A stretch of DNA of 64,000 nt from Alphaproteobacteria bacterium (GTDB lineage Bacteria > Pseudomonadota > Alphaproteobacteria > UBA828), in NCBI GenBank assembly GCA_965220745.1, contig CBDCQT010000012.1, forward strand, positions 480,001-544,000, read 5' to 3'. The notes below the pieces were generated by a model. The model saw nothing but the letters and a program-made list of their open reading frames with translations. It was not told where the DNA came from and did no database searches. Made by a program: the position numbers and the translations under genes. This document shows positions 2,217-43,875 of this stretch, piece after piece (within the stretch, counting starts at the first letter, position 1; every line of letters starts with the position of its first letter).

Positions 2217-2250
2217 GGCCGCGCGGGTATCAGGTGAGGCGGGTGTCGCG

Positions 2251-3207
2251 CTAGCTTTCGGCGACGGCGCCCAGCTCCAGGTACTTCTCCCGCCGCTGAC
2301 TACGCAGGGACGCACCGTCGAGGCCGCGCAGGTCGACGAACGCTTCCTCCAGCGCCGAACCGGCCCGATCGATCGTGCTTGCCGCATCCCGGTGAGCGCC
2401 GCCCACGGGCTCCGGCACGATGCCGTCGATCACGCCGAGTGCGTGCAGGTCCTCCGCCGTCAGGCGCAACGCCTCCGCCGCCGTCTCCGCATGGGCCGCG
2501 TCACGCCACAGGATCGACGCGCACCCCTCCGGCGAAATCACCGAGTAGATTGCGTGCTCCATCATCAGCACGCGGTTGGCAACGCCCAGAGCGATCGCTC
2601 CGCCGGAGCCGCCCTCGCCGATGATGAGCGCGACCACGGGCACCCTGACATCGAGACAGGCCTCGATGCAGCGCGCGATTGCTTCTGATTGTCCGCGCTC
2701 CTCAGCGCCGACGCCGGGATAGGCGCCCGGCGTGTCGATCAGCGTCAGCACGGGCACCTGAAAGCGCTCCGCCAGCCGCAGCAGGCGCGACGCCTTGCGG
2801 TAACCTTCGGGGTTGGCCATGCCGAAGTTGTGGGCGACCCGGCCCTCGGTATCGGACCCCTTCTCCTGGCCGATGACCATCACGGTGTGGCCCTGGAGGC
2901 GCCCCAGCCCTCCGATCACCGCCCGGTCCTCGCCGAAGGCACGGTCGCCGGCAAGCGGCAAGAAGTCCGTGATGAGGCGCGAGATGTAGTCGGAGCAGTG
3001 GGGCCTGAGCTGATGGCGGGCGACCAGCGTCTTCTGCCATGGAGTGAGGCGGCTGTAGGTCTGCTTGAGCAGTCGGTCGACCTTGCCCTCGAGGCGCGAA
3101 ACCTCGTCGAGCATGTTGACGCCGCTGTCGTCGCTGAGGTGGCGAAGCTCCTGAAGCTTGCCTTCGATCTCCGCGATCGGCTTCTCGAAGTCGAGATAAC
3201 TGTTCAT
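2251..3207 (-). CDS. accA: Acetyl-CoA carboxylase carboxyltransferase alpha subunit
   Basis: YLDFEKPI N-terminus, [30 protein letters not shown]. Confidence 0.97.
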
Positions 3208-3400
3208 CGACTCGCCCACTAACCCGCCTCATGTATAGCACGAGGCAACAATTCGACAATCGGAAGCTCGGATTATCGGCGCCCGTCTCTCGTCGCGACG
3301 GTCGCTCTTGGCAACCAGCCCCCGCTGCTGGCGCCATATGGGGTGCGCACTGGCGACGCGCAACCCGACCCTTGCAGCGCGTGCGAGCGGGGCCGTTGCC

Positions 3401-4687
3401 TCAGGCGTCGCGGCCTCTGGCAGCGCGGGAGCGCGGGATTACCCGGAGCTGGGTGATCTGATTTCGCCTGCGGGCGCGGACCTCAAATGTGAAGCCGTAG
3501 AGCGAGAAGGACTCGCCGATCTCGGGAATCTCCTGCGCCTCGTTCAGCACGAGGCCCGCGATGGTTGCGGCCTCCTCGTCGGGGAGATCCCAGTCGTAAC
3601 GCCGATTGAGATCGCGGATCGCGACGGTTCCCGGAATCAGGAACGAGCCGTCGTCGCTCTCCACCACCTCGCTGAGCGCGACGTCGTGCTCGTCGACGAT
3701 CTCGCCCACGATCTCCTCGATGATGTCCTCCAGGGTCACGAGGCCCATCAGCGAGCCGTATTCGTCGACGATCAGCGCGAAGTGAGCCCGACGCTCGCGG
3801 AACGAGTGGAGTTGCTCGTCGAGCGGCGTGGTCTCGGGCACGAACCAGGGCTCGGTCACGATCGACATGACGTCGAGTCGGTCGAGGTCGGCGAGGTTCG
3901 CATGCATCGCCCGCAGCAGGTCCTTGGCATGCAGGACGCCCACGATGTTGTCCGGCTCGCCCTTCCAGACCGGCAGACGCGTGTGGGGGCTGCGGACGAC
4001 CTGGTCGAGGATGTCGGCGGGCGCCGCGTCGGCGTCGATCATCTCCATGGTCTTGCGGTGAGTCATGACCGCGCCGACTTCGATCTCCTCCAGGTCGAGG
4101 ATGCTGCGGAGCATGTCGCGCTCATGCTTGACCATGGCGCCTTCCTGCGCCTGCAGGGCGATGGTGCCCCGAAGCTCCTCCTCGGCGGCGCTCGCCGTCC
4201 TCGGTCCCTGGGAGGCCCCGGCCGCGCTAAGCGTCGCCGAGACGACCAGCCTTACGGCGCCGACAATGGGGGAGAGCAGCCACACGATGGGGCGCAGCAC
4301 CGGCGCCACCCTGAGTGCCACCCGGTCGGCATCGCGGATCGCGTAGGTCTTCGGCAGCACCTCGGCGAAGACCAGAATGACCAAGGTCATGCCGATCGTC
4401 GCATAAGCCACGCCGGCGTCCCCGACCACCGAAATCAGAACGCTGGTGGCCAGTGCGGAGGCGAGGATGTTGACGGCGTTGTTGCCGAGCAGAATCGCGC
4501 CGATCAGTCGCTCCCGATCGTCGGTGAGCCGCTCGACCGCACGCGCGCGCCTGTCGCCGGCGCCTGCCAGATGGTGCATGCGCGGGCGGGAAGCTGCGGT
4601 CAGGGCCGTCTCAGAGCCTGAGAAAAAGCCCGATAACGCGATCAGCAAGCCGATCGCGCCGATGGTGATGGCAGTCTCGGTCGTCAT
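3401..4687 (-). CDS. HlyC/CorC (CNNM) family transporter with DUF21, CBS pair and CorC domains
   Basis: SGFFSGSETAL, AEVLPKT, HTRLPV, VDEYGSLMGLVTLEDIIEEIVGEI. Confidence 0.92.
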   Translation of the reverse strand: MTTETAITIGAIGLLIALSGFFSGSETALTAASRPRMHHLAGAGDRRARAVERLTDDRERLIGAILLGNNAVNILASALATSVLISVVGDAGVAYATIGMTLVILVFAEVLPKTYAIRDADRVALRVAPVLRPIVWLLSPIVGAVRLVVSATLSAAGASQGPRTASAAEEELRGTIALQAQEGAMVKHERDMLRSILDLEEIEVGAVMTHRKTMEMIDADAAPADILDQVVRSPHTRLPVWKGEPDNIVGVLHAKDLLRAMHANLADLDRLDVMSIVTEPWFVPETTPLDEQLHSFRERRAHFALIVDEYGSLMGLVTLEDIIEEIVGEIVDEHDVALSEVVESDDGSFLIPGTVAIRDLNRRYDWDLPDEEAATIAGLVLNEAQEIPEIGESFSLYGFTFEVRARRRNQITQLRVIPRSRAARGRDA

Positions 4688-6650: not shown

Positions 6651-6779
6651 TTGAAAGTCCTCGTCATCATCCTCTTGCTCATCATCGGCGGCGGAATCGG
6701 ATTTCTTTTGACCTGGGATATCCCCCCGCCGCCCGGTCCGGTCGAAAAGGTGCTGTCCAATGATCGCTTCGAGAAGTGA
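6651..6779 (+). CDS. Small (42 aa) single-TM membrane protein, absent from the ORF track
   Basis: TTG start; [42 protein letters not shown]; AGGAG upstream at 6631; stop overlaps the next start (GTGA). Confidence 0.75.
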
Positions 6780-8677
6780 GAGCACCCCCGGTTAGTCGGA
6801 TGTTCCGACTGCCTCTTCGCCGCTCGCGAGTTGGCCGAAAGCCATGGTCCGCGCTTGTCGGCGCATTTCTTCCGGCTGTTCTGCTGCTGATCGCATCCGC
6901 GGGTGAAGGCATCGCTCAGGATTCCGATGAGCCGTTGCGGCTGATCCCGCAGCAGCAGAGCGAGGACGTCGACGAGAGCGGCTCGGAGCCGGGCGAGGAC
7001 GAAGGCGCGTCCCCGAACATCGATTCGGTCGTGGGCGCAGAGGGTACCGCCGCGACCGCTTCGGCCGCTCCCGCATCGGCCGAAGGCGGCATCCGTGTGG
7101 GCGCGCTCGAGGCCATCGATCCTGATGCGGCTGGCATTCCGGTCGAGGGACTCGAGCCGTTTCCTGGCGATCTCTGGTCGGGCTCGCGTCGCTCAAGGAT
7201 CGAAGCCTTGCTGCCGCGCCTGCCCGTCGCGGCGCCTTCCTTCACCATGCGGCGACTCGCGTTGGGGTTGCTCACCTCGCCGTCGCAACCGCCTGCTGGT
7301 GAGGGCGAGGCCGGTGCACTCGCCCTCGTGCGGGCCGAGCGCCTGGTGGCCATGGGTGCGCGCGACGCTGCTCTTGCGCTGCTGGAGAGTGCCGGTCCGG
7401 CCGGGGGTCAGAGTCTCACCGCCCGGATCGAGAACGACCGCCTTCTCGCTGCGTTCGACCTCGACACCGCTTGCGCGCAAATCCTCGGCAAGGCAGGGCG
7501 GGCCGGCGATGGTTATTGGCGCCGCGTGCGCATCCTGTGTCAGGCGCACGCCGGCATGATTGAGGCCGCAACGCTCGGCCTGGAGCTGCTGCTGGAAACC
7601 GATACCGCGTCCGATCAGGTGTTCGACGACACGATCTATGCCATGGCGGGGTTGGCCGAGCCTGTCGTGGATTCGATGGCCGATCCGACTCCCCTGCGCG
7701 TCGCCGCCTGGCGGCTTGCGCAGCTCCCGATCCCGGTGGAAGCGGTGGGGAGAGCAGCGCCCGATGTGCTGCCGGCGATTGTCGTCGCGCCGGAATCCCT
7801 GCCGGGGGCACGGCTGCTGGCGGCGGAGCGCGCGGAGGCGACCGGCACACTCCCCATTGAAGCCCTTCGCGATCTCTATCGAACCATGTCGTTCTCGTCG
7901 GAGGAGCGCGCCGATGCCCTGGCGCAGGTCGAATCGCTGGAACCGCCGCTCGGCCGCGCCTTGATGCTCCAGGCGATCGAGACAGAGACGGCGCCTGCGC
8001 TCAGGGCGGAGCTGCTGGCGGAGGCACTCTTTCTTGCCGAGGCTCAAGGGGCTCACGGAACTGCGGCGCGAGCGTTCGCGCATCTGGTGGGCACGGTGCC
8101 GCCAGCGCCCGCGCACGTCTGGTTCGGCGCGGCGGCCGGGCGAGCTCTCATTGCGGCCGGCGAGCTCGATGCGGCTGCACGCTGGTACGCACTGGCCACG
8201 GACCATGGCTCGCGCAACCCCGAAGCGTTGCGCGCCTCGTTGCGGCTCTGGCCGTTGATGCTTCTGAGCGGCGATGACGATCATCTGACCAAGGCCAAGT
8301 TCGACGCGTGGCTTTCTCTGCGGGCCGACGAGGGCGGGCGGACCGTCGCGGTCGCGCGGGCGAACTGGCTGGCGATTCTGGTCGATGCGCTCGGAGGCCG
8401 CGTAGACCCGCAGGTCTGGGATCGCCTGTTGCTCGACGAGCCACCTGTGGCAGCGCGGGGGCCGGCGCTGGCGCTGGCGAACGGACTGCTGAAGGCGGCC
8501 GAGGGCGGGCAGCTCGGCGAAACCGTCCTGTTGGCGCTGCTGCTGCTCGGCGACGCCGGCCCCGCCGCTGCAGGCATCGCGACCGTCGGGCCCGTGGTCT
8601 CCAGCCTCGTTTCTGCCGACCTGCAGGAGGAGGCGCGGGCGATCGCCCTGGAAGCGGCGCTCGCGGCGGGGCTTTGA
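6776..8677 (+). CDS. Exported alanine-rich helical hypothetical protein upstream of xerD
   Basis: 633-aa ORF with signal-like segment, acidic linker and DLWSGS motif; translationally coupled on both sides. Start uncertain. Confidence 0.75.
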   Translation: MRAPPVSRMFRLPLRRSRVGRKPWSALVGAFLPAVLLLIASAGEGIAQDSDEPLRLIPQQQSEDVDESGSEPGEDEGASPNIDSVVGAEGTAATASAAPASAEGGIRVGALEAIDPDAAGIPVEGLEPFPGDLWSGSRRSRIEALLPRLPVAAPSFTMRRLALGLLTSPSQPPAGEGEAGALALVRAERLVAMGARDAALALLESAGPAGGQSLTARIENDRLLAAFDLDTACAQILGKAGRAGDGYWRRVRILCQAHAGMIEAATLGLELLLETDTASDQVFDDTIYAMAGLAEPVVDSMADPTPLRVAAWRLAQLPIPVEAVGRAAPDVLPAIVVAPESLPGARLLAAERAEATGTLPIEALRDLYRTMSFSSEERADALAQVESLEPPLGRALMLQAIETETAPALRAELLAEALFLAEAQGAHGTAARAFAHLVGTVPPAPAHVWFGAAAGRALIAAGELDAAARWYALATDHGSRNPEALRASLRLWPLMLLSGDDDHLTKAKFDAWLSLRADEGGRTVAVARANWLAILVDALGGRVDPQVWDRLLLDEPPVAARGPALALANGLLKAAEGGQLGETVLLALLLLGDAGPAAAGIATVGPVVSSLVSADLQEEARAIALEAALAAGL

Positions 8678-9672
8678 CGCGTCGTAGGCGGCCACGGACG
8701 GCCGAAGCCGCGCTCCGCGAGGGCGACGCGGCCGCCATCGAGGCGTTTCTCGAAATGGTTGCCGCAGAGCGCGGGCTCGCCCGCAATTCGATCGACGCCT
8801 ACCGGCGGGACCTCGCCTGTTTTGCCGCCTATCTCGCGCCGTCGCGTATGGCCCTGGTTGAGGCCGACTCCGCGTCGATCCGGGGGTTCGTGGCGGAACA
8901 ACGCCGCTCCGGCGTTGCGGCGCGCACCGCGGCGCGTCGGCTCTCCTGCCTGCGCCAGTTCTATCGGTTCCTGTTGACCGACGGCCGGCGTGACGACGAT
9001 CCCACTGCGACGGTGGATTCGCCAGTGCTCCCTCGCACGCTCCCCGGCGTGCTCAGCGAAGAGGAGGTCGAGAGGCTGCTGGCGGCAGCGTGGCCCGAGG
9101 ACGATGCGGCGAAGATGTCGCCCAGGCGCGAGGCCGACGGGCTTCGCCTGCGGGCCATGATCGAGCTGCTTTACGGCAGCGGTCTCCGTGTTTCGGAGCT
9201 GGTGTCGCTGCCGCTCCACGCGATCTCCGCCGAGACGCAGAGCCTGTTGGTGCGGGGCAAGGGCGACAAGGAACGCCTGGTTCCGCTCGGGGCGCCAGCC
9301 CGCCGGGCGCTCGACGCCTATCTCGCGGTGCGCGATCGTCACCTGGCGAACGGAGCGCCGTCCCGCTGGCTGTTCCCCTCGCGCGGCGCGAGCGGTCACC
9401 TGACGCGGCATCGACTTGCGCAGATGCTCAAGGCGCTGGCGCAGGCGGCGGGGATCGAGCCGAGCCGGGTCTCGCCCCACGCGCTGCGCCATGCCTTCGC
9501 CAGCCATCTGCTCGCCAACGGGGCGGACCTGAGGGCGGTGCAGAAGATGCTCGGCCACGCCGACATCGCGACAACGGAAATCTACACCCATGTCCTCGAC
9601 GAGCGGCTCAAGCGGCTGGTCGAGGCCGGGCATCCCCTCGCCGCCGCCGGCCGCGCGCGCTCGGGCGGCTAA
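8674..9672 (+). CDS. xerD: Site-specific tyrosine recombinase XerD
   Basis: ERGLARNSIDAYRRDL, GLRVSEL, GKGDKER, SPHALRHAFASHLL, LGHADIATTEIYTHV; TTG start overlaps the previous stop. Confidence 0.93.
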   Translation: MTRRRRPRTAEAALREGDAAAIEAFLEMVAAERGLARNSIDAYRRDLACFAAYLAPSRMALVEADSASIRGFVAEQRRSGVAARTAARRLSCLRQFYRFLLTDGRRDDDPTATVDSPVLPRTLPGVLSEEEVERLLAAAWPEDDAAKMSPRREADGLRLRAMIELLYGSGLRVSELVSLPLHAISAETQSLLVRGKGDKERLVPLGAPARRALDAYLAVRDRHLANGAPSRWLFPSRGASGHLTRHRLAQMLKALAQAAGIEPSRVSPHALRHAFASHLLANGADLRAVQKMLGHADIATTEIYTHVLDERLKRLVEAGHPLAAAGRARSGG

Positions 9673-9857: not shown

Positions 9858-11015
9858 ATGAGCGGGCAGCGGCCATTCCTGATTCGCATGAGCCTCTTCC
9901 TGGCCCTCGTGGTCGGGGTGGTCGTCGTGCTGAGCGACACGCTGGGCGATGCGTTCTTCGCCAATTCGATTCTGAACGGCGTCATCCTTGGCGCGCTGGT
10001 CATCGGCATCGTCTACAATTTCCGCCAGGTCCTGCTGTTGAAGCCGGATACCGCCTGGCTCGCGGCGGTGAAGAGCGACGACGTGCCGGGCGCGGCACCG
10101 CCGTCGTCCGCTCGCAAGCCGCGCCTGCTGGCGCCCCTGGCGACCATGTTGGCAGACCGGCGCGGCCGCATGACGCTCTCTGCCGTTTCGCTCCGCAGCC
10201 TGCTCGACGGCATCGGCTCGCGGCTCGACGAATCGCGCGATCTGTCGCGCTACATGATCGGCCTCCTGATCTTCCTGGGTCTGCTGGGCACGTTCTGGGG
10301 CCTGCTCCAGACCGTGACCTCGGTGGGCGACGTGATCGGCGACCTCTCGGTGGCCAATCAGGACATGCTCGGCGTCTTCGACGACCTCAAGGGCGGCCTC
10401 GAAGCCCCGCTCGAAGGGATGGGCACGGCCTTCAGCTCCTCGCTCTTCGGACTCGCGGGCTCGCTCATCCTGGGCTTTCTCGACCTCCAGGCGAACCAGG
10501 CGCGGAACCGCTTCTACAACGAGCTGGAGGACTGGCTCTCCTCCTATACCCGGCTTACCGGCGGCACGCTCGGCGTGGAGGGCGACCAGTCGGTTCCGGC
10601 CTACGTCAGCGCTCTGCTGGAGAAGACCGCCGACAGCCTAGAGGAGCTGCAACGAACGCTCGCGCGCGGCGAAGAGCAGCGCGCAACCTCCTCGGCCAAC
10701 CTGCTGTCGCTCACCGAGCGCCTGGCCACGCTCACGGACCACATGCGCTCCGAGCAGGACCTCATGGTCAAGCTGGTGGAGAATCAGCTGGAGATGCGGC
10801 CGGTGCTTGAGCGCCTCGCGGCGGGCGCCACCCGACAGGGCGGTCTCGACGAGCCCAGCCGCGCGCATCTGCGCAACCTGGACGTCTATCTTCAGCGGCT
10901 CCTGGAGGAGATGGTCTCCGGGCGCGAGCAGTCCGTCGCCGAGCTTCGCAGCGAGATCAAGCTCCTCGCACGGACCATAGCGGCGGTCGCCGAGAACGAG
11001 CGGCGCCAAAGCTGA
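9858..11015 (+). CDS. MotA/TolQ/ExbB-like proton channel membrane protein
   Basis: LGLLGTFWGL and GMGTAFSSSLFG transmembrane motifs; coiled-coil C-terminus. Confidence 0.88.
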   Translation: MSGQRPFLIRMSLFLALVVGVVVVLSDTLGDAFFANSILNGVILGALVIGIVYNFRQVLLLKPDTAWLAAVKSDDVPGAAPPSSARKPRLLAPLATMLADRRGRMTLSAVSLRSLLDGIGSRLDESRDLSRYMIGLLIFLGLLGTFWGLLQTVTSVGDVIGDLSVANQDMLGVFDDLKGGLEAPLEGMGTAFSSSLFGLAGSLILGFLDLQANQARNRFYNELEDWLSSYTRLTGGTLGVEGDQSVPAYVSALLEKTADSLEELQRTLARGEEQRATSSANLLSLTERLATLTDHMRSEQDLMVKLVENQLEMRPVLERLAAGATRQGGLDEPSRAHLRNLDVYLQRLLEEMVSGREQSVAELRSEIKLLARTIAAVAENERRQS

Positions 11016-11033
11016 GCGCGGGAGGCCCGCCCG

Positions 11034-12464
11034 GTGTTTGCCGCATCGCGCCTGAAACGAAGGGGCTCTAGCGCCGACTACTGGCCGGGCTTCGTCGACC
11101 TGATGTCGACGCTGCTCCTGGTGATGATCTTCCTGCTCGTCGTCTACATGCTGGCGCAGTACTTCCTGCAGCGCACCCTGTCCGAGGAAACCGAGGCGAA
11201 GGACGACCTCAACGCCCAGCTCAACAGTCTCGACGAGACGCTCGCCCTCGAGCAGCAGGCCAACGCGGATCTCAGGATCAATATCGCCCAGCTCGCGGAT
11301 CAGCTTCAGAGCTCGCTTTCGGTTCGGGACCAGCTCATCGCCGAGCTTTCGATGATCACCGGCGAGCGCGACACGCTCCAGCTGCGTCTCAGGGAGATGA
11401 CGGGGGAGGGGCAGTCCGCGCTCGCCGAAGCAGCCCAGGCCTCCATCAGGGCGGATGCCGGCGAGGAGAAGATCAAGGTTCTGCTCTCCGACGTCGAGCG
11501 CCTGCGCCGCGACATCGACGCGCTGAACGCGGTGCGCCGGGATCTCGAGTCCAAGGTCGGGATAATGGCGGCGGCGCTGATCGAGAGCCGGGGCGAGCTC
11601 GGCCAGAGCGAAGAGGAGACGGCAGCCGTGCGGGCCGATCTCTCCGCGCAGCGCGACACCACGGCGGAGCTCGAAGCGCGCCTCTCCGACGAGCAGGAGC
11701 GCACGGTGCTCGCCCAGCGCACGCTGGAGGAGCGGGAAATCCGCCTCGCCGAGGTGCAGGCCCTTCACCTCGCGGCCCAGTCCTCGTACGACAGCACCCA
11801 GGCGGCACTGGACGAGAACCGCCAGCTCAGCGCGCGCCAGCGCGACCAGATCGCCGTGCTCAACCAGCAGATCGACGCGCTCAGGGCGCAGCTCGGGCGC
11901 GTCGAGGAAGCCCTGCAGATCTCGGAGCGCAAGACCCAGGAACAGGACGTGACGATCGCCAACCTGGGCCAGCGCCTCAACATGGCGCTCGCCGCCAAGG
12001 TCGAGGAACTCGCCGCTTACCGCTCCGAGTTCTTCGGCCGGCTCCGGGAGGTGCTGAGCGACCGGCGCGACTTCACCATCATCGGCGACCGCTTCGTCTT
12101 CCAGTCCGAGGTTCTGTTCGCCCCCGCCTCCGACGAGCTGGGCCCGGAAGGTCACGACAAGTTGGCGAAGTTTGCACAGGTCCTCAGGGACGTGATGGTT
12201 CAGATTCCGTCTGATCTGCCCTGGATCCTGCAGGTCGATGGCCACACCGACAGCCGGCCGATACAGACGGCCCGCTTCCCGTCCAACTGGGAGCTCTCGG
12301 CGGCGCGCGCGATCTCGGTGGTGAACTTCCTCGTCGCCCTCGGCATCCCGCCCGAGCACCTGAGCGCCGCTGGCTACGGCGAGTTCCAGCCTCTCGACGC
12401 GCGCGAGGACGAGATCGCCTATCGCCGCAACCGTCGCATCGAACTCAAGCTGACCCAGCGATAG
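11034..12464 (+). CDS. MotB/OmpA-like peptidoglycan-binding protein with long coiled coil
   Basis: WPGFVD TM helix containing Asp; C-terminal GHTD...NWELSAARA...NRRIE OmpA-like domain. Confidence 0.9.
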   Translation: MFAASRLKRRGSSADYWPGFVDLMSTLLLVMIFLLVVYMLAQYFLQRTLSEETEAKDDLNAQLNSLDETLALEQQANADLRINIAQLADQLQSSLSVRDQLIAELSMITGERDTLQLRLREMTGEGQSALAEAAQASIRADAGEEKIKVLLSDVERLRRDIDALNAVRRDLESKVGIMAAALIESRGELGQSEEETAAVRADLSAQRDTTAELEARLSDEQERTVLAQRTLEEREIRLAEVQALHLAAQSSYDSTQAALDENRQLSARQRDQIAVLNQQIDALRAQLGRVEEALQISERKTQEQDVTIANLGQRLNMALAAKVEELAAYRSEFFGRLREVLSDRRDFTIIGDRFVFQSEVLFAPASDELGPEGHDKLAKFAQVLRDVMVQIPSDLPWILQVDGHTDSRPIQTARFPSNWELSAARAISVVNFLVALGIPPEHLSAAGYGEFQPLDAREDEIAYRRNRRIELKLTQR

Positions 12465-12570
12465 AGCGAGTCCGTCTTTGACGGACTCGCGACAGGCCGC
12501 GACCGCGGCCCGCCGCTCCTGCGGCGCCCTCGCGGAGGCGCCGGCCGTAGGCCGGCTGCCGTGAGCGACA
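12462..12570 (+). repeat. Multi-hairpin intergenic repeat family R1, copy A (short form, lacks terminal hairpin)
   Basis: TAGAGCGAGTCCGTC-TTT-GACGGACTCGCGACAGGCCGCG...GCTGCCGTGAGCGA; homologous to 21685-21857, 37278-37454 and 43729-43875. Confidence 0.9.
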
Positions 12571-12584
12571 AATGCTTCAAGGGA

Positions 12585-14459
12585 TCACCCGGCCGCGCTG
12601 CGGGGCGCGGCGGCGAGGGCGTCTCGCGCCGAATCCTCTTCGCGCCCGTCGTCGAACTGGAGCGCCGCGAGCCTCGCGTAGAGCCCGCCGCGCGCCATCA
12701 GCGCCCGGTGCGTCCCCTCGGCGACCACGCGGCCCTCGTCCATCACCACGATGCGGTCCGCCTTCTGCACGGTGGCGAGGCGATGCGCGATGACGATGGT
12801 GGTCCGCCCCGCCATCAGCCGCTCCAGCGCCGCCTGCACCGCGCGCTCGCTCTCGGCGTCCAGCGCGCTAGTGGCCTCGTCGAGCAGCAGCACCGCCGGG
12901 TTGCGCAGCACGGCGCGGGCGATCGCGAGCCGCTGCTTCTGCCCGCCCGAGAGCCGGGTGCCCTTCTCGCCGAGGAAGGTATCAAAACCCTCCGGCAGGC
13001 TGTCGAGGAAGGCCGCCGCGCCCGCCGCCTCCGCCGCGGCGCGGACCTCCTCGTCGCTCGCCTCGGGCCGGCCGAAGCGGATGTTCTCCCGCGCGCTCGT
13101 CGCAAACATCACCGCATCCTGCGGTACCAGCGCGAAGGAGCGCCGCACCGCCTCCAGCGAGGCCTCCCGCAGGTCGACCCCGTCGAGCACGACGCGCCCG
13201 TCCTCGGGGTCGTAGAAGCGCAGCAGGAGGTTGAAGACGGTCGACTTGCCCGCGCCCGAGGGACCCACCAGGGCGACCGTCTCGCCCGGCGCAACGGCCA
13301 GCGAGAAGCCCTCCAGCGCCGGCGCGTCCGGCCGAGCGGGGTAGTGGAAGGTGGCGCGGTCCAGCTTCACGGCGCCCTGCTGCGGCTCCAGCAGCGGCTT
13401 CGTCACCGCAGGCGCGGGCGCGAGCGCGGGCTCCTCGTTGAGCAGCTCGGCCAGCCGCTCAGCGGCACCGGCGGCGTGCTGCAGGTCGCCGTAAACCTCG
13501 CTGAGCGAGCCCACCGAGCCCGCGACCACCACGGCGTAGAACATGAAGGCGGTCATCTCGCCGCCGGTCATCTCGCCCTGCAGCACCGTGGTGCCGGCGA
13601 TCCAGAGCACGAGGCCCACGCCGCAGAAGACCAGCAGGATGACGATCGCCGTCAGCGTCGCCCGTGCCTGCACGCGCCGCAGCGCCGCGCGGAACGCCGC
13701 CTCCACGTGGTCGCCGAAGCGCTCGCCGCTCCGCTCCTCCTGGCCGAAGGCCTGCACGGTGCGGATGCCGCCGAGCGCTTCCTCCATGTGCCCGCCGACA
13801 TCGCCCACGCGGTCCTGGGCGAGGCGGGAGAAGCGCCGCACGCGCCGGCCGAGCACGACGATGGGGATCACCACCACGGGCACCATCAGCACCACGAAGC
13901 CGGTGAGCGTCGGGCTCGTCACGATAAGCATGGCACTGGCCCCGAGGAACAGCAGCAGGTTGCGCAGCGCCGACGACGCCTGCTGGCCGATCACGGTCTG
14001 CAGCAGGGTGGTGTCGGTGGTGATGCGCGACAGCAGCTCCCCCACCTTGTTGATCTCGAAGAAGGCCGGGCTCAGCCCCACAAGGCGGCGGAAGACTGCC
14101 CGCCTTATGTCGGCCACCACCCGCTCGCCGAGCCAGGAGACGAGGTAGAAGCGCGCAAACGAGCCGCCCGCCAGCAGCGCCACCATGCCCGCCATGTAGA
14201 TCAGCGCATGGTGGAGCCGCGAGATCTCCTCCGCGCTGAGGCCGTCGTCGATCAGGACCCGGAGCCCCTGGCCCATCGCGAGCACCGCCGCGGCGCTGAC
14301 GCAGAGCGCGAAGACCGCCGCCACGATCACTCCGCGGTAGGGCCGGAGGAAGCGGAACAGGTAGCGGATACGGCGGATCTCGCCACGCGGCGGCAGGGCT
14401 GACGACGCCGGCGAATCGCCGGAGCGCCGCCGCCTCGCTTCCGATCCGAAGATGCTCAC
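12585..14459 (-). CDS. ABC exporter, fused permease/ATPase (MsbA-like family)
   Basis: N-terminal TM domain, [32 protein letters not shown]. Confidence 0.93.
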
Positions 14460-14575
14460 CGCTGCCGCCCCCCGTTCTGGTGGCGGCACGATATCCGAGT
14501 CGCGGCGGAGCCAATAGCCGCTTGCGCCGGGCGCGCCGCGTCTATATGAAAGCCGCGCGACAAGCGGGGCCCGCC

Positions 14576-14894: not shown

Positions 14895-14990
14895 TGTCCT
14901 GCTCGTCTGAGGCCCGTGTTCCGAAGGGTCATGTACCCAAGAGCGGCCTCGTGTCTCGTCGGCCCGGTGGGATTATCCCAAATGTTAATT

Positions 14991-15051
14991 TTAGGCGGCC
15001 TATTCCGGCCCACTCCGGCCCAAAGTGGCCCAAGGTGGCCCAAGGTCGCCC
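14991..15051. repeat. Array of degenerate 10-bp-period units (GGCC/CGCC core) after an AT tract
   Basis: GGCC at 14997, 15007, 15017, 15027 and 15037, CGCC at 15047. Confidence 0.75.
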
Positions 15052-15083
15052 ACGCGACAAAATTAGGGGATTATATACCGACC

Positions 15084-15113
15084 TTGACATCTGAGCGCAA
15101 TTCCCCGTAGCCT
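15084..15113 (+). promoter_or_regulatory. Putative inward-facing sigma70 promoter with -35 in the left TIR
   Basis: TTGACA (15084-15089), 18-nt spacer, TAGCCT (15108-15113); predicted start near 15120 coincides with the first base of a long stem. Confidence 0.6.
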
Positions 15114-15119
15114 CCTCCC

Positions 15120-15240
15120 TGCAACGTTACGCGGACCCGCTTGTCGGGTCGCCCGCTGAATAGAACAGCCCTTGATCCGGCCGGGGTAGCTCCCCGGCTT
15201 GGCGAATAGGCGGGGCTTCACGCTTCCGTGTGACGTTGCA
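15120..15240 (+). ncRNA. Putative structured RNA or 5' leader of unknown family inside the IS1595 element
   Basis: 16-bp closing stem TGCAACGTTACGCGGA/TCCGTGTGACGTTGCA with two G-U pairs, enclosing CCCGCTTGT/ATAGGCGGG, GCTG/CAGC and GCCGGGG-TAGCT-CCCCGGC helices. Confidence 0.55.
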
Positions 15241-15293
15241 ACGGCCCGGCGCCAGGCGCCAAGGGGCGCGGCCGGTCCACGGGAGATGGACCT

Positions 15294-16610
15294 ATGCTCA
15301 GAACATCGTTGATCGCCGTAGCGTGCGCTGCGGCCGTGATAGCGCTTGCCGCCTGCGGCGGTGGGGGCGGGGGCAGTGGTGAGCGGCCATCCGTCCACCA
15401 CGATATTGTCGGGGTCGACCAAGGCCTCGAGTCTTTTCGAGGGCTGCCGTCAGCCGGCGCGCGCGGCGGTGTGGCGATCCGCTACGGCACTCGCACTGAT
15501 GGCGTGGGTCGCGACGCCTTGGTCGCCTATCTCACCGAAGCCGGCGCCACGACAGCACGCTGGTACGACGTGCCGCCGGACATTCGGGTGATCGGCCCCT
15601 CGACGGCGCGGGAAAAGCAACTCGTGACCGAGGTCGTCGAGGCGATCAACCTATCGCTGCCGCCTGAGCACCGGATCAAGCTCAGGACGCCCGTGGCAGG
15701 GCTCAGCCTGCGCCACACGGTGAATGCCGCTGGCCGCTACTTCCGGGGGAGAGATCACCGCCCGAACACGATCCATATCGAGTTCCTCGACTGCCACGAT
15801 TACCACGACTGTGGCACCTCCGGCGCCACCGCCTGGGGCAACGGGTCCGACCTTCACGCCTACGTCCAGATGGCACGAGGAACACCCGCCTATGGCCGGG
15901 ATGATTGGGCACGCATCCTTCTGGCGCACGAGCTCCTGCACACCCTGCTTGCGGACGAGCATGTCAGCGAGCGCTTCGACTCGATCAATCTGGGCTCCAA
16001 TGCCATCTACGCGGCCGGGCCAGCCTCTATCCTCAAGCCGATCGACCGTGAAGCGCTCCAGGCGCTCTACGGGCACCTCGAACTGCACGACAGCCCAACG
16101 GCCCTCGGCCCTTGGTCGAGCACCTCGACGCATTTCATCGGTGACGGGCGCCATGCCGACTTCGGCGTTGCGCTGAGAAACGGCTACGCGGAGCCGTGGG
16201 CGCGCGGTGCCCGGCCTTCCTCCACGCTCGCGAACAACCGCGCCCTCTTGGGAACGGTCATCTGGGATGGCGCGCTGGTCGGCTTCTCGGGGCACCAATC
16301 CGTCACGGGCGATGCCTTGATCTCCGTCGACCTGACCGTGCTCGATGCTCCCTTGCCCGAGCTCGACGGCAGTGCCGTCTTCACGGCGCTCGAATACTGG
16401 CATCACCCCGAAGCCGACGATCCGTTGGGCGGCTCGATGTGGGGCGACGGCGATCTCGCCTACACGATCACCGTGGACGGCAACACCTTCCGAGAAACTG
16501 GCGGGGATGATGGTAGACTCACGGGGATCTTCACCGGCCGTTCCCATGAAGGAGCCGCCGGCACCTTGGAGCGGTCCGACCTCATCGCAGCCTTCGGCGC
16601 TTCACGCTGA
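15294..16610 (+). CDS. Passenger lipoprotein: metzincin-like HExxH domain plus C-terminal TbpB/fHbp-like beta-barrel
   Basis: Lipobox LAAC followed by poly-Gly; AHELLHTL and DREALQALYG; C-terminus GRLTGIFTGRSHEGAAGTLERSDLIAAFGASR. Confidence 0.8.
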   Translation: MLRTSLIAVACAAAVIALAACGGGGGGSGERPSVHHDIVGVDQGLESFRGLPSAGARGGVAIRYGTRTDGVGRDALVAYLTEAGATTARWYDVPPDIRVIGPSTAREKQLVTEVVEAINLSLPPEHRIKLRTPVAGLSLRHTVNAAGRYFRGRDHRPNTIHIEFLDCHDYHDCGTSGATAWGNGSDLHAYVQMARGTPAYGRDDWARILLAHELLHTLLADEHVSERFDSINLGSNAIYAAGPASILKPIDREALQALYGHLELHDSPTALGPWSSTSTHFIGDGRHADFGVALRNGYAEPWARGARPSSTLANNRALLGTVIWDGALVGFSGHQSVTGDALISVDLTVLDAPLPELDGSAVFTALEYWHHPEADDPLGGSMWGDGDLAYTITVDGNTFRETGGDDGRLTGIFTGRSHEGAAGTLERSDLIAAFGASR

Positions 16611-16627
16611 CCATCGGGAAAGAGATC

Positions 16628-16783
16628 ATGGCGAAACAGACCGGCGAGACAGACTTGCTCACCTTGGCGATGCGCCGCGCGCACGCGGAGGCGGCAGAAA
16701 GGCGGGAGCCGGAACTCCCGCCCGATACCGAAAATGCTTCAGCCGCGGATGTTGCTGACGACCAGAATGTTGCCGTCGAGTAG
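16628..16783 (+). CDS. Small acidic passenger ORF (51 aa), hypothetical
   Basis: ATG 17 nt after the lipoprotein stop with purine-rich GGGAAAGAG upstream; MAKQTGETDLLTLAMRRAHAEAAE...; not in the ORF track. Confidence 0.45.
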   Translation: MAKQTGETDLLTLAMRRAHAEAAERREPELPPDTENASAADVADDQNVAVE

Positions 16784-16957
16784 CTTGGTCTCGTTGATCA
16801 AACCGCCCAATAGTCCCCGGTGGACCGCGCCAATGACGGTGGTCTCGACCGCCTCGTGACTGGCGCCGGGGAGCTGCGCGGCAAGGTCTTCGACGGTGTT
16901 GAACTGGCGGCCTCGGCAAGCCGCAAGGACGCGCTGTAGCAGCGGTGTCTGGGACAC
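16739..16957 (-). CDS. Small passenger protein (72 aa), possible winged-helix fold
   Basis: AAGGAG 7 nt before GTG; helix-helix-helix-hairpin pattern (TVEDLAAQL, SHEAVETTVIGAVHRGLL). Confidence 0.55.
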   Translation of the reverse strand: MSQTPLLQRVLAACRGRQFNTVEDLAAQLPGASHEAVETTVIGAVHRGLLGGLINETKLLDGNILVVSNIRG

Positions 16958-17169
16958 AGAAGGTCTCCTTGATCTGGAGACCGCCTAACGCCATGCTATG
17001 GAGATTGCGTTTCAGCATGTGCCCGCAGCGGTCTCGTGAGCCATGTGCGGGTGCCGGGAGTTCCCCTGCCAGGGGGTAGGCCCGACCGTCGAGCATCATC
17101 TTAGCCGATGGTGCTCGATGTGTCTTCAGGGTAGTGGCCGCAACTTGTCGACCGTCAAGATGTAGGGGG

Positions 17170-18153
17170 TCAGGCGCTGCGTGCGCCGCTTGACAGGCCG
17201 TTGTCGGCGATCAGCGCGCTGTACGCCAGATGCTTGCCCACCATGTGCGTGACGGCGGTTTCCATCTGCTCGATGGTGTCGGCCTCGCGCACGTTGTGCC
17301 GGCCCGAGAACTCGTTGATGTACCGCTCAAGATGCTTCTGGCTCATCTTGTGGTAGGTACCGTGGTAGCCGCGCTTCAGCATCGCCCAGAAGCTCTCCAT
17401 GCCGTTGCAGTGTGCCTGTCCCCGGACATATTCGCCGGCGCTGTGGTTCACGGCCTCATGGTCGAACCATGCCGCCAGTGCGTTGTACGCCTTCGACTCG
17501 TCGGTGTAGACCGTGGCGCCGGGCTTGGTCCGCTCCGCGACGAAGCCCGCGACATGGGGAGTGTCGGTACCGGCGACGTGGCGAGCGGCGACCTTGTTGC
17601 TCTCGCGATCCTTGGTCCCAACGACTGCGGCCTTGCCGACCGCTCCCCGGCCCGTCAGCTTCACCCGCTTGCTCTTGGGCATGTTCTTCCGCCTGCCGCC
17701 GATATAGACCTCATCGGCCTCCACGGGCCCGGAAAACGGCGCCGCACCGTTGTCGTCCCACGCTTCCCGCAGGCGATGCAGCATGAACCAGGCCGTCTTC
17801 TGGGTCACCTTCAGGTCGCGATGCAGCTTCATGCTGCTCACACCCTTCAGGTTGGTGACGTAGAGGTAGACCGCGAACACCCACTTGCGCAGCGGCAGGC
17901 GGGAGCTTTGCAGCATGGAGCCGGTGCGGACGGAGAAGTAGGACCGGCACGACTTGCACCAGTAGGGCATCGGCTTCGCGTTCGGCACTTCCTTCGTCTC
18001 GGTCGATCCGCAATGGCCGCAGTGGCGCTCGCCGTCCGGCCAGCGCGTATCCTCAAACCACTTCACTGCCGAGGCTTCGTCGGGGAACATCTCGGTCAGT
18101 TCGATGATCGAAATGCCTTCGCGGTGGGCTTTTCCAGGTGCTTTGCGGGTCAT
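17170..18153 (-). CDS. IS1595-family DDE transposase
   Basis: Zn ribbon CGHC...CKSC, KTAWFMLHRLR, EADEVYIGG, YTDE, NGMESFW, YINEFSGRHN. Confidence 0.96.
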   Translation of the reverse strand: MTRKAPGKAHREGISIIELTEMFPDEASAVKWFEDTRWPDGERHCGHCGSTETKEVPNAKPMPYWCKSCRSYFSVRTGSMLQSSRLPLRKWVFAVYLYVTNLKGVSSMKLHRDLKVTQKTAWFMLHRLREAWDDNGAAPFSGPVEADEVYIGGRRKNMPKSKRVKLTGRGAVGKAAVVGTKDRESNKVAARHVAGTDTPHVAGFVAERTKPGATVYTDESKAYNALAAWFDHEAVNHSAGEYVRGQAHCNGMESFWAMLKRGYHGTYHKMSQKHLERYINEFSGRHNVREADTIEQMETAVTHMVGKHLAYSALIADNGLSSGARSA

Positions 18154-18178
18154 TTCTCGTCTCCCCCTTACACCTTGG

Positions 18179-18207
18179 AATATAGGCACTTACCCCTCGA
18201 TTGTCAA
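18179..18207 (-). promoter_or_regulatory. Transposase promoter with -35 in the right TIR
   Basis: Minus strand TTGACA, 17-nt spacer, TATATT, then AAGGGGGAG before the ATG at 18153. Confidence 0.75.
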
Positions 18208-18262
18208 GGTCGGTATATAATCCCCCAAAATTATCGCAACCACGGAAGCAGAGGCCCGCCCG

Positions 18263-19119: not shown

Positions 19120-20373
19120 TTACACGGCGGCCCAGTGGGAACCTTCGATCCCGCCGACCCGCCGGCCGGACTTGATGTGGATGCGCCGGCCGGGGAGGCG
19201 CCGCAGGACATCGACCAGGTTGGTCGCCTCGAACACCACCAGGTCGGCGGGGGAGCCTGCGGCAACCTCGGGCACAGGCGCGCCGATGATCTTCGCCGCC
19301 CGCGTGGTCACCATCTCGAAGCCCTCGCGGACCTCCTCGTCGAGCCTCATGCCGGCGCTGTGCACGGTCATGTAGGCGAGCTCCACCGGGTCCATCCGGT
19401 TGAAGCGATACCAGATGTCGTACATGTTGTCGGCGCCGGCGGCGACGTTGATGCCGGCGTCGAGCATCTCCTTCACCCGTGACGAGCCCCGGTTCTGGGG
19501 CGTCCGGCCCTCACCGCCCAGCATCTGGAGATTGGCGATCGGCAGCACGGTGACCGCCATGTCGGCGTCCAGCACCTTGTCGATCACCCGCGTCGCCTCC
19601 TCGTCGGGATAGACCGCGAGCGCGTTGCAGTGGCTGGCGACGACCCGGCCCTGCATGCCGTGGGCAACGGTGGCCTCGGCCAGCATCTCCAGCGTCTTGA
19701 GCTCGGCCCGGTCCATGTAGTCGGCGTGCATCTCCACGCCCACGTCGAACTCGGCGGCGAGGTCGAGCACCGTCTCGACGTGGGTGCGCTGGTCTTCCAC
19801 CGAAGCCTCGACTTCCGGCAGGCCGCCGACCGCTGCAGCGCCCATGCCGAGCGCCTCGCGCAGCAGCGCCGGCGCCTCCGGGTCCGCGACGATCCCTTCC
19901 TGGGGGAAGGCCACGAGGGTGACGTCGACGACGCCGGCGAAGCGATCGCGCGCGCGCATCACGCCTTCGAAGGAGACCAGCTTGGTTGCGAAGTCCACGT
20001 CGATCTGGGCGTGCAGGCGGCCGATGCCGTGGGCCGCGGCGAGCCTGAGGGCGGTGCTGGCGCGCTCCTCCACGTCGGCGAGGGTGAAATGGATCTTGGC
20101 CTCGCGGGCGCGGTCCAAGGCCTCCTGCGGCCCGCGCGCACCGAGCAGGTCGCGGCTCAGCACCTTGTCGATGTGGAAGTGGGGATCGACGAAGGAGGGC
20201 GTGACCAGCCCGCCGCGCGCGTCGACACGCGCCGCCGCGTGGCCGTCGAGGGTAGGCGCGACCGCCTCGATACGGCCGTCGCGGATGCCGATGGAGACCG
20301 GTACCGCATCATCGAGACGCACTGCGTCGTGAATGAGAAGGTCCCACTCGGGGCCCGGAGCCGCGTCCGTCAT
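19120..20373 (-). CDS. Amidohydrolase, cytosine/creatinine deaminase-like
   Basis: FVDPHFHIDK, VAFPQEG, MHAD, SHC, GADN and PADLVVF motifs. Confidence 0.88.
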   Translation of the reverse strand: MTDAAPGPEWDLLIHDAVRLDDAVPVSIGIRDGRIEAVAPTLDGHAAARVDARGGLVTPSFVDPHFHIDKVLSRDLLGARGPQEALDRAREAKIHFTLADVEERASTALRLAAAHGIGRLHAQIDVDFATKLVSFEGVMRARDRFAGVVDVTLVAFPQEGIVADPEAPALLREALGMGAAAVGGLPEVEASVEDQRTHVETVLDLAAEFDVGVEMHADYMDRAELKTLEMLAEATVAHGMQGRVVASHCNALAVYPDEEATRVIDKVLDADMAVTVLPIANLQMLGGEGRTPQNRGSSRVKEMLDAGINVAAGADNMYDIWYRFNRMDPVELAYMTVHSAGMRLDEEVREGFEMVTTRAAKIIGAPVPEVAAGSPADLVVFEATNLVDVLRRLPGRRIHIKSGRRVGGIEGSHWAAV

Positions 20374-21684: not shown

Positions 21685-21857
21685 GGGCGTTCCCGTTTGG
21701 CACGGAAACGCCCTCGCACTATTTCGCTCACGGCAGCCGGCCTATGGCCGGCGCCTCCGCGTCGCGCGTCCACGCGCGCTGGCGCGCGATGGCGCCGCAG
21801 GAGCGGCGGGCCGCAGTCGCGGCCTGTCGCGAGTCCGTCGAAGACGGACTCGCTCTA
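21685..21857 (-). repeat. Repeat family R1, copy B (long form)
   Basis: Reverse complement begins TAGAGCGAGTCCGTC-TTC-GACGGACTCG and ends in the hairpin GGGCGTTTCCG...CGGGAACGCCC. Confidence 0.9.
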
Positions 21858-22220
21858 CCGCTGCCTCCTCGACCACAGTCGGGCGCCGGGGCCATGCTGC
21901 TCGGCAACGGTGAACCGCTCGGCCGCAATCAGGGCGTCCAGCGCCTCCCGGAGTGAGCGGCCGGATACCAGGTACTTGCTGATCTTGCCGGGCGGGAGCG
22001 TCAGATCGCGCTGCTTGAGCGCGCCCGAGACATAAGCACGTATCTCGGCGAAGGAGCGGGGCTCGGCGAGGATCGGCGCGAGCAGCCCGTCAAATTCGTC
22101 GAGCCCAAGCGCCGTCTCCCATTCGACGGTGATCTTCTGCTCGAAGCTGTAGCTGCCTTCCAGCAGGATCGCATCGGGGCTCGGCCGGCCGGCCCGCCTA
22201 GCGCGCCGCGCCTGCGCCAT
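21855..22220 (-). CDS. Hypothetical protein or gene fragment (about 121 aa)
   Basis: Protein-like composition (DAILLEGSYSFE...WETALGLDEFDGLLAPILAEPRS); overlaps the LysR 3' end; start uncertain. Confidence 0.45.
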   Translation of the reverse strand: MAQARRARRAGRPSPDAILLEGSYSFEQKITVEWETALGLDEFDGLLAPILAEPRSFAEIRAYVSGALKQRDLTLPPGKISKYLVSGRSLREALDALIAAERFTVAEQHGPGARLWSRRQR

Positions 22221-37210: not shown

Positions 37211-37277
37211 GGTCAAGCCCGGCCATGACGAGGTGGGATTAACGTGCGAAGGCATGCGAACGGCTGTCGGGGGGCGG

Positions 37278-37454
37278 TAGAGCGTGTCCGCCTTTGACGG
37301 ACACGCGACAGGCCGCGACTGCGGCCCGCCGCTTATGCGGCGCCATCGCGCGCCCGCGCGCGTGGACGCGCGACGCGGAGGCGCCGGCCGTAAGGCCGGC
37401 TGCCGTGAGCGATAAAGAAGCCGGAGCGTTTCCGTGCAAAACGGAAACGCCCTA
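37278..37454 (+). repeat. Repeat family R1, copy C (long form)
   Basis: TAGAGCGTGTCCGCC-TTT-GACGGACACG ... GAGCGTTTCCGTGCAAAACGGAAACGCCCTA. Confidence 0.9.
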
Positions 37455-43703: not shown

Positions 43704-43728
43704 TCCAGGTAAGCTCCCGATAGGTACG

Positions 43729-43875
43729 TGGAGCGTGTCCGTCTCTGACGGACACGCGACAGGCCGCGACCGCGGCCCGCCGCGTTAGCGGCGCCCTCGC
43801 GGAGGCGCCGGCCGCAGGCCGGCTGCCGTGAGCGATAAGAGGCTAGAACGCTCCGCGTAAAGCGGAAGCGTTCTA
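43729..43875 (+). repeat. Repeat family R1, copy D (short form)
   Basis: TGGAGCGTGTCCGTC-TCT-GACGGACACG ... TAGAACGCTCCGCGTAAAGCGGAAGCGTTCTA. Confidence 0.9.

Follow-up and report, generated by a model that had tools for sequence, protein, structure and literature searches.

A structured RNA leader of ~130 nt lies between a promoter-like site and the cargo gene of an IS1595-family transposon in the 64,000-nucleotide stretch of alphaproteobacterial DNA that we analysed (the window; all coordinates are positions within it). We are highly confident that the structure is real and conserved, and comparison of its sequence across genomes makes it probable that the RNA is a conserved cis-acting 5′ leader of the cargo gene that has so far gone uncatalogued. 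A sequence-only reading of this DNA had proposed an unrecognised noncoding RNA or cis-regulatory leader at this site, and had recommended comparison with Rfam (c4-type RNAs included), a covariance model built from homologues and a comparison of folding energy with shuffled controls. Covariation, folding energy and the lack of any Rfam match all support that proposal.

Results

An IS1595-family transposon carries the leader just inside its left end

The transposon and the features at its ends are as follows:

15058–15065: left copy of the 8-bp target-site duplication (CAAAATTA), identical to 18226–18233
15066–18225: IS1595-family transposon, 3160 bp, with a promoter-like site and the leader just inside its left end
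15066–15089, + strand: left terminal inverted repeat (GGGGATTATATACCGACCTTGACA), 24 bp, perfect
15084–15089, + strand: −35-like TTGACA, the innermost six bases of the left inverted repeat
15108–15113, + strand: −10-like TAGCCT, 18 nt past the −35 and 6 nt before helix P1 of the leader
15294–16610, + strand: cargo gene for a 438-aa lipoprotein with a HELLH motif (ORF, AlphaFold2 and Foldseek)
16739–16957, − strand: small 72-aa ORF between cargo and transposase genes (ORF list)
17170–18189, − strand: IS1595-family DDE transposase, 339 aa (Pfam and NCBIfam)
18179–18207, − strand: transposase promoter-like site, TTGACA-17 nt-TATATT, 11/12 consensus positions (promoter scan)
18202–18225, − strand: right terminal inverted repeat, 24 bp, perfect
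18226–18233: right copy of the 8-bp target-site duplication (CAAAATTA)

The repeat GGGGATTATATACCGACCTTGACA matched the window twice, on opposite strands and with 0 mismatches (0.00 matches expected by chance), and the 36-nt, 89% repeat detected at the ends of the element is this inverted repeat plus the 8-bp target duplication. Duplications of 8 bp are typical of the IS1595 family. The transposase matched Pfam DDE_Tnp_IS1595 (PF12762; 2.7e-40, 138 bits against a cut-off of 27) and NCBIfam transpos_IS1595 (NF033547; 195.6 bits against a cut-off of 75), with its N-terminal zinc-ribbon (PF12760) scoring 24.8 bits, just below the cut-off of 25.4. According to Pfam and NCBIfam, this is the sole enzyme gene of the element. 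The 72-aa ORF belongs to no Pfam family and is 62% identical to a translated stretch at the same position in the related locus L007. The element in another related locus, L001, is likewise flanked on both sides by a duplicate, AATTCTTT.

The element resembles IS1595 transposons with passenger genes in its transposase domain, its terminal repeats starting GGGGATTAT, its 8-bp duplication and the presence of a passenger gene. ISNwi1-type ends and the passenger genes of the IS1595 family are reportedly described in ISfinder and by Siguier et al. in 2009. In the portions of papers returned by a full-text literature search, we found no account of a leader RNA conserved for IS1595 passengers.

The leader folds more stably than shuffled sequences

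On the plus strand, the core of the leader (15120–15241) had a predicted folding energy of −68.3 kcal/mol, compared to −47.7 ± 4.1 kcal/mol for shuffled sequences (z −4.99; 0/200 as good), while the minus strand gave z −3.23 (1/200 as good). For the 182-nt stretch 15115–15296, z was −3.85 on the plus strand (0/200) and −1.63 on the minus strand (12/200). The leader consists of the following parts:

15120–15135, + strand: 5′ arm of P1, a 16-bp terminal helix (fold and pair changes)
15134–15150, + strand: hairpin H1, GACCCG-CUUGU-CGGGUC (−10.0 kcal/mol)
15143–15151, + strand: segment A (GUCGGGUCG), 5′ strand of helix A:D (RNAalifold)
15152–15157, + strand: CCCGCU, 5′ strand of helix A:C, pairing with 15209–15214
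15158–15208, + strand: optional inner domain, comprising GAAUAGAACA, the GCC/GGC helix, hairpin B and then GAAUA
15168–15170 with 15201–15203, + strand: GCC paired with GGC in the inner domain (RNAalifold)
15180–15198, + strand: hairpin B of the inner domain, loop UAGCU
15209–15214, + strand: GGCGGG, 3′ strand of helix A:C (RNAalifold and pair counts)
15215–15224, + strand: C/U/A-rich, G-poor linker from helix A:C to the 3′ arm of P1 (alignments)
15225–15240, + strand: 3′ arm of P1 (fold, pair counts and arm-swap check)
15242–15250, + strand: segment D (CGGCCCGGC), 3′ strand of helix A:D (RNAalifold)
15251–15293, + strand: remaining leader, with a partner arm for D (~15263–15276), the Shine-Dalgarno (SD) hairpin and the SD
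15274–15279 with 15287–15292, + strand: SD hairpin, GGUCCA/UGGACC, preceding the ATG at 15294
15281–15285, + strand: SD GGGAG, in the loop of the SD hairpin

P1, which joins the predicted mRNA 5′ end to a stretch ~105 nt downstream, is present as the sequence-only reading described it. The helix has 14 Watson-Crick and two G-U pairs (U15128-G15232 and G15131-U15229); both G-U pairs become A-C mismatches on the minus strand, as that reading had pointed out. Both hairpins that it placed inside the stem, GCUG/CAGC and GCCGGGG-UAGCU-CCCCGGC, are in the minimum-free-energy fold. Its inner stem (15136–15144 with 15206–15214) is also in that fold, but the conserved partner of 15209–15214 is 15152–15157. 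Similarly, GGUCCA and UGGACC do flank GGGAG before the ATG as described, but this SD hairpin is shared only with the related locus L051 and is therefore not a family feature. In the window, the A:D duplex has 9 bp and −15.3 kcal/mol, and H1 competes with it for 15145–15150. This conserved long-range helix (15143–15151 with 15242–15250) was absent from the sequence-only reading. Neither blastn nor the covariance model described below revealed a second leader copy in the window.

Relatives of the leader occur in at least five phylum-level groups

At least 432 of 8000 candidates scored were relatives of the cargo protein at E ≤0.001. We aligned 30 proteins chosen from the top 38, and a genome scan keyed on this alignment yielded 61 loci. 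Using the window leader as query, nhmmer detected 16 places in 13 of these loci. A MAFFT alignment of 17 leaders, in which the outer stem is variable yet always self-complementary and the core strongly conserved, was the basis of a covariance model. Applied to the 61 loci and the window, the model gave 27 hits at E ≤1, of which 17 were full-length (92–149 bits) and eight were short variants (32–48 bits). The short variants are a copy on the other strand of L007 (48 bits), the L056 copy (32.1 bits) and six identical copies in one genome (L001–L004, L021 and L028; 38.3 bits). Two weak hits (L053, E 0.38; L057, E 0.52) were dropped. At E ≤0.01, there were 20 distinct copies in the window and 15 loci, with 19 of them in the 15 loci.

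The hosts are labelled as at least five phylum-level groups and include Alphaproteobacteria (among them Defluviicoccus), Candidatus Binatia (L010 and L023), Dehalococcoidia (L022), Syntrophobacterales (L031) and Gemmatimonadota (L056). Since every copy was found via one cargo family, the sample is biased: the scan started from the cargo protein and under-represents copies that accompany other cargo or lie outside transposons. A blastn search of a plasmid collection with 15059–15300 gave no match.

An IS1595 transposase was encoded in 9/16 distinct motif loci but in only 2/41 loci counted as motif-free by model R1, which gives short variants low scores (odds ratio 25, p 5e-5). The other 7/16 motif loci had no transposase within the fetched DNA. 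A loose regular expression applied to the motif-free loci detected scattered GC-rich noise only, none of it upstream of the cargo gene.

Compensatory changes support the leader structure

We counted 38 pairs in the 20-copy alignment. Overall, 87.5% of cells were paired, compared to 74.1% in shuffles, and the covariation score was 0.420, compared to 0.185 in shuffles (0/500 as high) and 0.08–0.12 in slid controls. Because the alignment was fitted to a model holding P1, A:C, GCC/GGC and hairpin B, the following counts lean upward for those helices; A:D was not in the model:

P1: 70–82% of cells paired; 16/16 pairs changed on both sides
A:C: 94.9% of cells paired; 3/6 pairs changed on both sides
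GCC/GGC: 100% of cells paired; 2/3 pairs changed on both sides
A:D: 97.8% of cells paired; 1/9 pairs changed on both sides

P1 was kept in 20/20 copies, with differing sequences. A check that needs no alignment gave the same picture, as the arms of each copy paired with a mean of −28.4 kcal/mol, compared to −13.7 ± 4.4 kcal/mol when arms were swapped between copies. A copy's own arms ranked best in 17/20 cases; the exceptions include the near-identical window and L007 leaders, and in L012 and L005 the own arms tie with the partner's and still rank first.

RNAalifold, run on the unfitted alignment, returned A:D, A:C and GCC/GGC and did not choose the inner stem of the sequence-only reading. We rejected that stem: its positions were 66.3% paired, the pairing of 15152–15157 with 15209–15214 was preferred, and an alternative structure containing it scored 0.097, compared to 0.077 in shuffles (11/500 as high). 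The GCUG/CAGC hairpin was 85.5% paired, with two pairs changed on both sides, and overlaps two better-supported helices; its changes for 15158–15166 come from the near-identical L012 and L005 leaders. For H1, the alignment count (65.8% paired, in a poorly aligned stretch) was no better than in shuffles.

Although A:D has just one pair changed on both sides, that pair (15151–15242) is G-C in 14 copies, A-U in two and U-A in one, and it falls outside both local hairpins, H1 and the hairpin that D forms with its downstream arm. U-G/C-G/U-A exchanges were also present at two positions of the helix. Part of the A:D complementarity could nevertheless stem from the sequence similarity of the H1 and D hairpins. 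In strand comparisons, the plus strand was far more favourable for this helix, with summed energies of −318 kcal/mol on the plus strand and −234 kcal/mol on the minus strand, and with the plus strand better in 18/20 copies. For P1, this asymmetry was modest (plus better in 13/20).

The inner domain is optional. A short loop takes its place in the L001 and L056 types, and in the minus-strand copy of L007 it is shortened; P1, A, C and D are retained throughout. The most conserved loop bases are in this domain, yet three distinct short variants lack or shorten it. The short natural variants of the L001 type are ~115 nt long. By eye, we saw no conserved short ORF that could encode a leader peptide in the alignments, and GAAUAG loops did not fit the K-turn or loop-E consensus.

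GC-rich segments of the core can pair in two ways

Inside and just after P1, six GC-rich segments follow each other in the order CCCG, CGGG, CCCG, CGGG, CCCG and CGGG. In the nested pairing, they form H1, A:C and a hairpin of D with its downstream arm; in the alternative, A:D is stacked on A:C. As P1 and A:D cross, they constitute either a pseudoknot or mutually exclusive alternatives. Per-copy folding predicted H1 (CCCG/CGGG), whose stem is 4–6 bp across copies, in 19/20 copies and the D hairpin in 20/20. A:D has 9 bp in 16/20 copies, has 7–8 bp in both L022 copies and in L026, and is weak in L010. In L044, changes in D are matched in both of its partners; D is CCCGA there and the downstream arm is UCGGG, a compensatory change. 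Segments with two partners are nearly invariant, while P1, with a single partner, varies freely, which we read as a mark of alternative pairing.

The energies of the two states are close in some copies, including the window (−97.2 and about −97.8 kcal/mol), whereas elsewhere the nested state is lower by as much as ~12 kcal/mol (L056). Once any pseudoknot penalty is added, the nested state is more stable in most copies. A side-by-side pseudoknot appears feasible by a geometric estimate, reasoned and not computed, in which linkers of 7 nt separate P1 and A, ~10 G-poor nt separate C and P1, and 1–2 nt separate P1 and D.

We looked for an output of the alternative pairing. When A and D were blocked in silico, SD accessibility increased in six of 18 copies, decreased in nine and was level in three. 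With no consistent direction, there is no visible route from a switch to translation, and control of the SD by a switch gained no support from these copies. The D hairpin lacks the U-tract of a classical terminator, and we rejected that role for it. The C-rich 15114–15119, just 5′ of P1, pairs with the SD in 4/18 copies and partly in a fifth; in these few copies, transcripts entering from outside would be masked. We suggest only tentatively that the core acts as a regulated switch, which we consider somewhat less likely than not.

The leader belongs to a promoter-leader-gene module

As the sequence-only reading noted, the left inverted repeat ends in TTGACA, with TAGCCT 18 nt later; this pair reads toward the cargo gene. 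Compared with the consensus, the left promoter is weak: only 3/6 positions of its −10 agree, which is why the site is absent from the promoter-scan output. Transcription is predicted to start at ~15120 ± 2. The transposase promoter-like site takes its −35 from the inner end of the right repeat and reads toward the transposase.

A script detected a −35 matching at least 5/6 of TTGACA, together with a −10-like hexamer ending 4–9 nt before P1, in 11/20 copies. In L001, a −35/−10 pair was also spotted by eye further upstream. The recurrence of −35/−10 pairs at a fixed place relative to P1 in the relatives fits a start at the foot of the stem.

The suggestion that the RNA is encoded by the transposon end holds in part. 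Only the window, L007 and the L001 type have the terminal repeat directly beside the module; in L051, L012, L031 and L044, the left repeat is ~530–1400 nt further out, and L005 retains only the inner portion of such a repeat. By this comparison, the RNA belongs to the promoter-leader-gene module and not to the terminal repeat itself.

Exported-protein genes follow every copy of the leader

The cargo protein belongs to no Pfam or NCBIfam family, and all hits in a PDB sequence search had E >0.08. An AlphaFold2 model (pLDDT 86.3, pTM 0.82) searched against the PDB with Foldseek matched 6cuj_A (E 4.5e-7), 3ve1_A (1.2e-6) and 2clt_A (1.9e-6). The C-terminal part matched the barrels of NHBA, TbpB, HpuA and hemophilin, and the full-length protein matched the full-length collagenases MMP-1 and MMP-13, a match that we attribute to the N-terminal half of the predicted model. 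From this model, we take the cargo to be probably a surface lipoprotein whose head resembles a metalloprotease. In one genome, the collagenase-like surface lipoprotein and its leader have multiplied to six identical copies.

All 20 copies are followed by an ORF on the same strand with a signal-peptide-like or lipoprotein-like N-terminus, and an SD and start codon lie within ~20–145 nt after the leader in 20/20. In L022 the leader precedes an RTX-repeat protein gene, and in L056 a gene whose product matches a TbpB-like barrel only weakly, with a score under the Pfam cut-off. The ORFs downstream in L007, L023 and L012 have signal-like N-termini and belong to no known family. We found no shared metabolic theme or ligand-linked function among the downstream genes.

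The leader matches no catalogued RNA family

Rfam 15 gave no hits in the whole window at the gathering threshold. At the motif in the 15 related loci there were also no hits; elsewhere in these loci, Rfam identified two group II introns and one tRNA. Rfam includes c4-type models, and none matched here. In a permissive local scan, all hits were at chance level, the best having E 1.1. This was the nhaA-II RNA (RF03038), two GC-rich hairpins of which align loosely over 15175–15263; at 18.9 bits against a gathering threshold of 70.4, we rejected it. Such an RNA was also not described in the portions of text that a full-text literature search returned.

In its behaviour, the leader is like an orphan cis-regulatory leader, outside every family compared. 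Orphan riboswitch candidates and other leaders classed as Cis-reg likewise combine a conserved fold in the 5′ UTR with helices that covary and junction bases that do not change. As in riboswitches, we found a conserved structured 5′ UTR domain with covariation, always upstream of a gene and on its strand, and the mutually exclusive pairings resemble an expression platform. Unlike RNAs of this type, it has no Rfam 15 model, is transposon-borne, precedes exported-protein genes without a common pathway, and has no route that we could find by which the alternative pairing would reach a terminator or the SD.

The stabilising 5′ stem-loop of the ompA 5′ UTR reportedly requires a helix at or near the transcript 5′ end. 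In the leader, too, a helix starts at the predicted 5′ end or a few bases from it, but the partner of the P1 5′ arm is ~105 nt away and not local, and P1 encloses a sequence-conserved core.

IS10 and IS50 are controlled by fold-back inhibition and the antisense RNA-OUT. As in these elements, an RNA structure lies inside a transposon end beside a promoter that overlaps the terminal repeat, and the anti-SD masking seen in a few copies, although not general, is similar to the IS10 fold-back. However, the leader here serves the cargo gene and not the transposase. Complementarity to the transposase 5′ region was −70.2 kcal/mol for own pairs and −68.4 ± 10 kcal/mol for swapped pairs (8 elements; the measure is crude on long inputs). 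As this pairing was no better than swapped and there is no antisense overlap, antisense control of the transposase was rejected. Bridge RNAs of IS110 and omega RNAs of IS200/605 are encoded beside an IS110 recombinase or a TnpB/IscB gene. We rejected a transposon guide RNA, as the element encodes neither and has only an IS1595 DDE transposase.

Discussion

A model that fits these data is a cis-acting leader with a two-state core. A sigma-70-type promoter with its −35 in the left inverted repeat would start transcription at, or a few bases from, the first pair of P1. This helix of 16–19 bp would give the transcript a base-paired 5′ end, which should protect it from 5′-end-dependent decay and insulate it from sequences flanking the transposon. 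Within the leader, the six GC-rich segments would pair in two exclusive ways, either as H1, A:C and the D hairpin or as A:D on A:C, crossing P1. The leader may toggle between these states and so set expression of the exported-protein gene; the two-way pairings come from comparison of the copies, and the toggling is what we infer from them. That the leader occurs in several phyla with only the transposase and cargo alongside argues for a universal cue or an element-encoded partner. Candidate cues are temperature, ions, small molecules and the machinery of translation or decay.

The main competing explanation, which we regard as unlikely, is a static stabiliser or insulator, in which P1 and the GC-rich hairpins protect the cargo mRNA and standardise it without any switching and A:D is a by-product of similar hairpins. 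It would account for P1 starting 4–9 nt after the −10, a spacing that stabilising stem-loops of the ompA type reportedly require. The copies folded have the nested state as their minimum-free-energy structure, the effect on the SD is inconsistent, and the short variants work without the inner domain, all as a stabiliser would have it. However, a simple stabiliser does not need A, C and D to be near-invariant while P1 drifts. It also leaves aside the covariation at 15151–15242, outside both hairpins, and an A:D helix that at 9 bp in 16/20 copies exceeds the 4–6 bp H1 stem. More improbable still is that transposons carry a new switch class sensing a ligand or signal, with the A:D pseudoknot, A:C and the optional GAAUAG-rich domain as its aptamer. 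In a bolder variant, the zinc-ribbon region of the transposase would bind the leader RNA, linking cargo expression to transposition.

We consider it very unlikely that the RNA is no leader and is instead a discrete small RNA of ~130–160 nt, ending at the D hairpin and acting in trans or bound by the transposase. Ends joined by P1 and then a GC-rich hairpin are a shape common in stable RNAs, and such an RNA would fit the association with the IS1595 transposase (odds ratio 25) and the crossing of phyla with transposase and cargo only. Against this, the hairpin lacks a U-tract, an SD and start codon follow on the same strand in 20/20 copies, pairing to the transposase 5′ region is not specific, and 7/16 motif loci have no transposase in the fetched DNA. 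Least credible of all is a DNA-level element, a single-strand hairpin or operator-like repeats serving transposition, recombination or repression. P1 does form a long inverted repeat close to one end of the transposon, and the minus strand of the core also beats shuffles (z −3.23). Folded single-stranded DNA also tolerates G-T wobbles. However, A:D is much weaker on the minus strand, the orientation is fixed relative to promoter and gene, and the module lies 0.5–1.4 kb from the repeat in four elements and in transposase-free loci in 7/16 cases. In addition, DDE transposases are not known to use hairpin sites.

A structured RNA family that covaries clearly and lies outside Rfam gives RNA biology a concrete new object. 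This leader is built into a mobile element, beside a promoter that reuses the terminal repeat. As it occurs in several phylum-level groups, the machinery or the cue that it depends on must be universal. At ~115 nt, the short natural variants would make compact parts. Should the two-state core really switch, transposons would be spreading regulated cassettes and not bare genes. Should the leader prove to be a new switch class, IS1595 elements would hand at least five phylum-level groups a ready-regulated cassette for surface or secreted proteins.

Surroundings of the insertion

The window's IS1595-family transposon lies between two stretches, 10638-14489 and 19120-20373, that hold its neighbouring genes. 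These are listed here with the small ORF inside the element and the repeats found elsewhere in the window.

Features in the window
11034-12464 (+), OmpA-family protein, insertion neighbour
12585-14489 (-), ABC exporter whose membrane and ATPase domains are fused, insertion neighbour
16739-16957 (-), 72-aa ORF between cargo and transposase
19120-20373 (-), amidohydrolase, insertion neighbour
12456-12568, 21724-21863, 37274-37392 and 43728-43835 (both orientations), repeated element of ~80-140 nt

Immediately outside the left end, at 14968-15057, we observed a small palindrome, TGGGATTATCCCA, followed by AAATGTTAATTTTAGG, and also approximately four tandem units resembling GGCCCAAGGT. The flank of a related element (locus L051) carries ATCCCATAACTTAATTTTAGG, which resembles this left-flank sequence. 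The flank is perhaps an AT-rich site favoured as a target, or else a leftover of another element's end. Elsewhere, the ~80-140-nt repeat occurs in at least four copies of mixed orientation, with 85-97% identity, and is a candidate miniature mobile element or intergenic repeat.

Within the element, the 72-aa ORF has a counterpart at the equivalent position in the related locus L007 (62% identity). Searches of Pfam and NCBIfam found no family for this ORF.

Leader copies and element copies in related loci

Features in related loci
L007 8669-8803 (-), short leader variant, the second element's own copy
L012 8977-9203 (-), group II intron domain (Rfam)
L023 1122-1260 (-), group II intron domain (Rfam)

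L007 contains a second IS1595 element (6700-8810), inserted tail-to-tail and adjoining the first, whose short leader variant (inner domain shortened) lies upstream of an unrelated 130-aa membrane-like ORF. At locus L022, two full leader copies 1.1 kb apart (2224-3664) point away from each other, one ahead of an RTX-repeat protein gene and the other ahead of a cargo homologue; transposase was absent from the 9.3 kb of locus DNA covered. The Rfam group II intron matches in L012 and L023 lie near the transposons.

Six of the loci (L001-L004, L021 and L028) belong to one genome (contigs CBDCME010000026/37/69/73). Each carries an identical copy of a cargo-bearing IS1595 element with a short leader variant. 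In L001, where the flanks were inspected, the ends of the copy are perfect over 25 bp, with an 8-bp duplication, AATTCTTT. Together, the six identical copies and the L001 ends and duplication suggest recent transposition.
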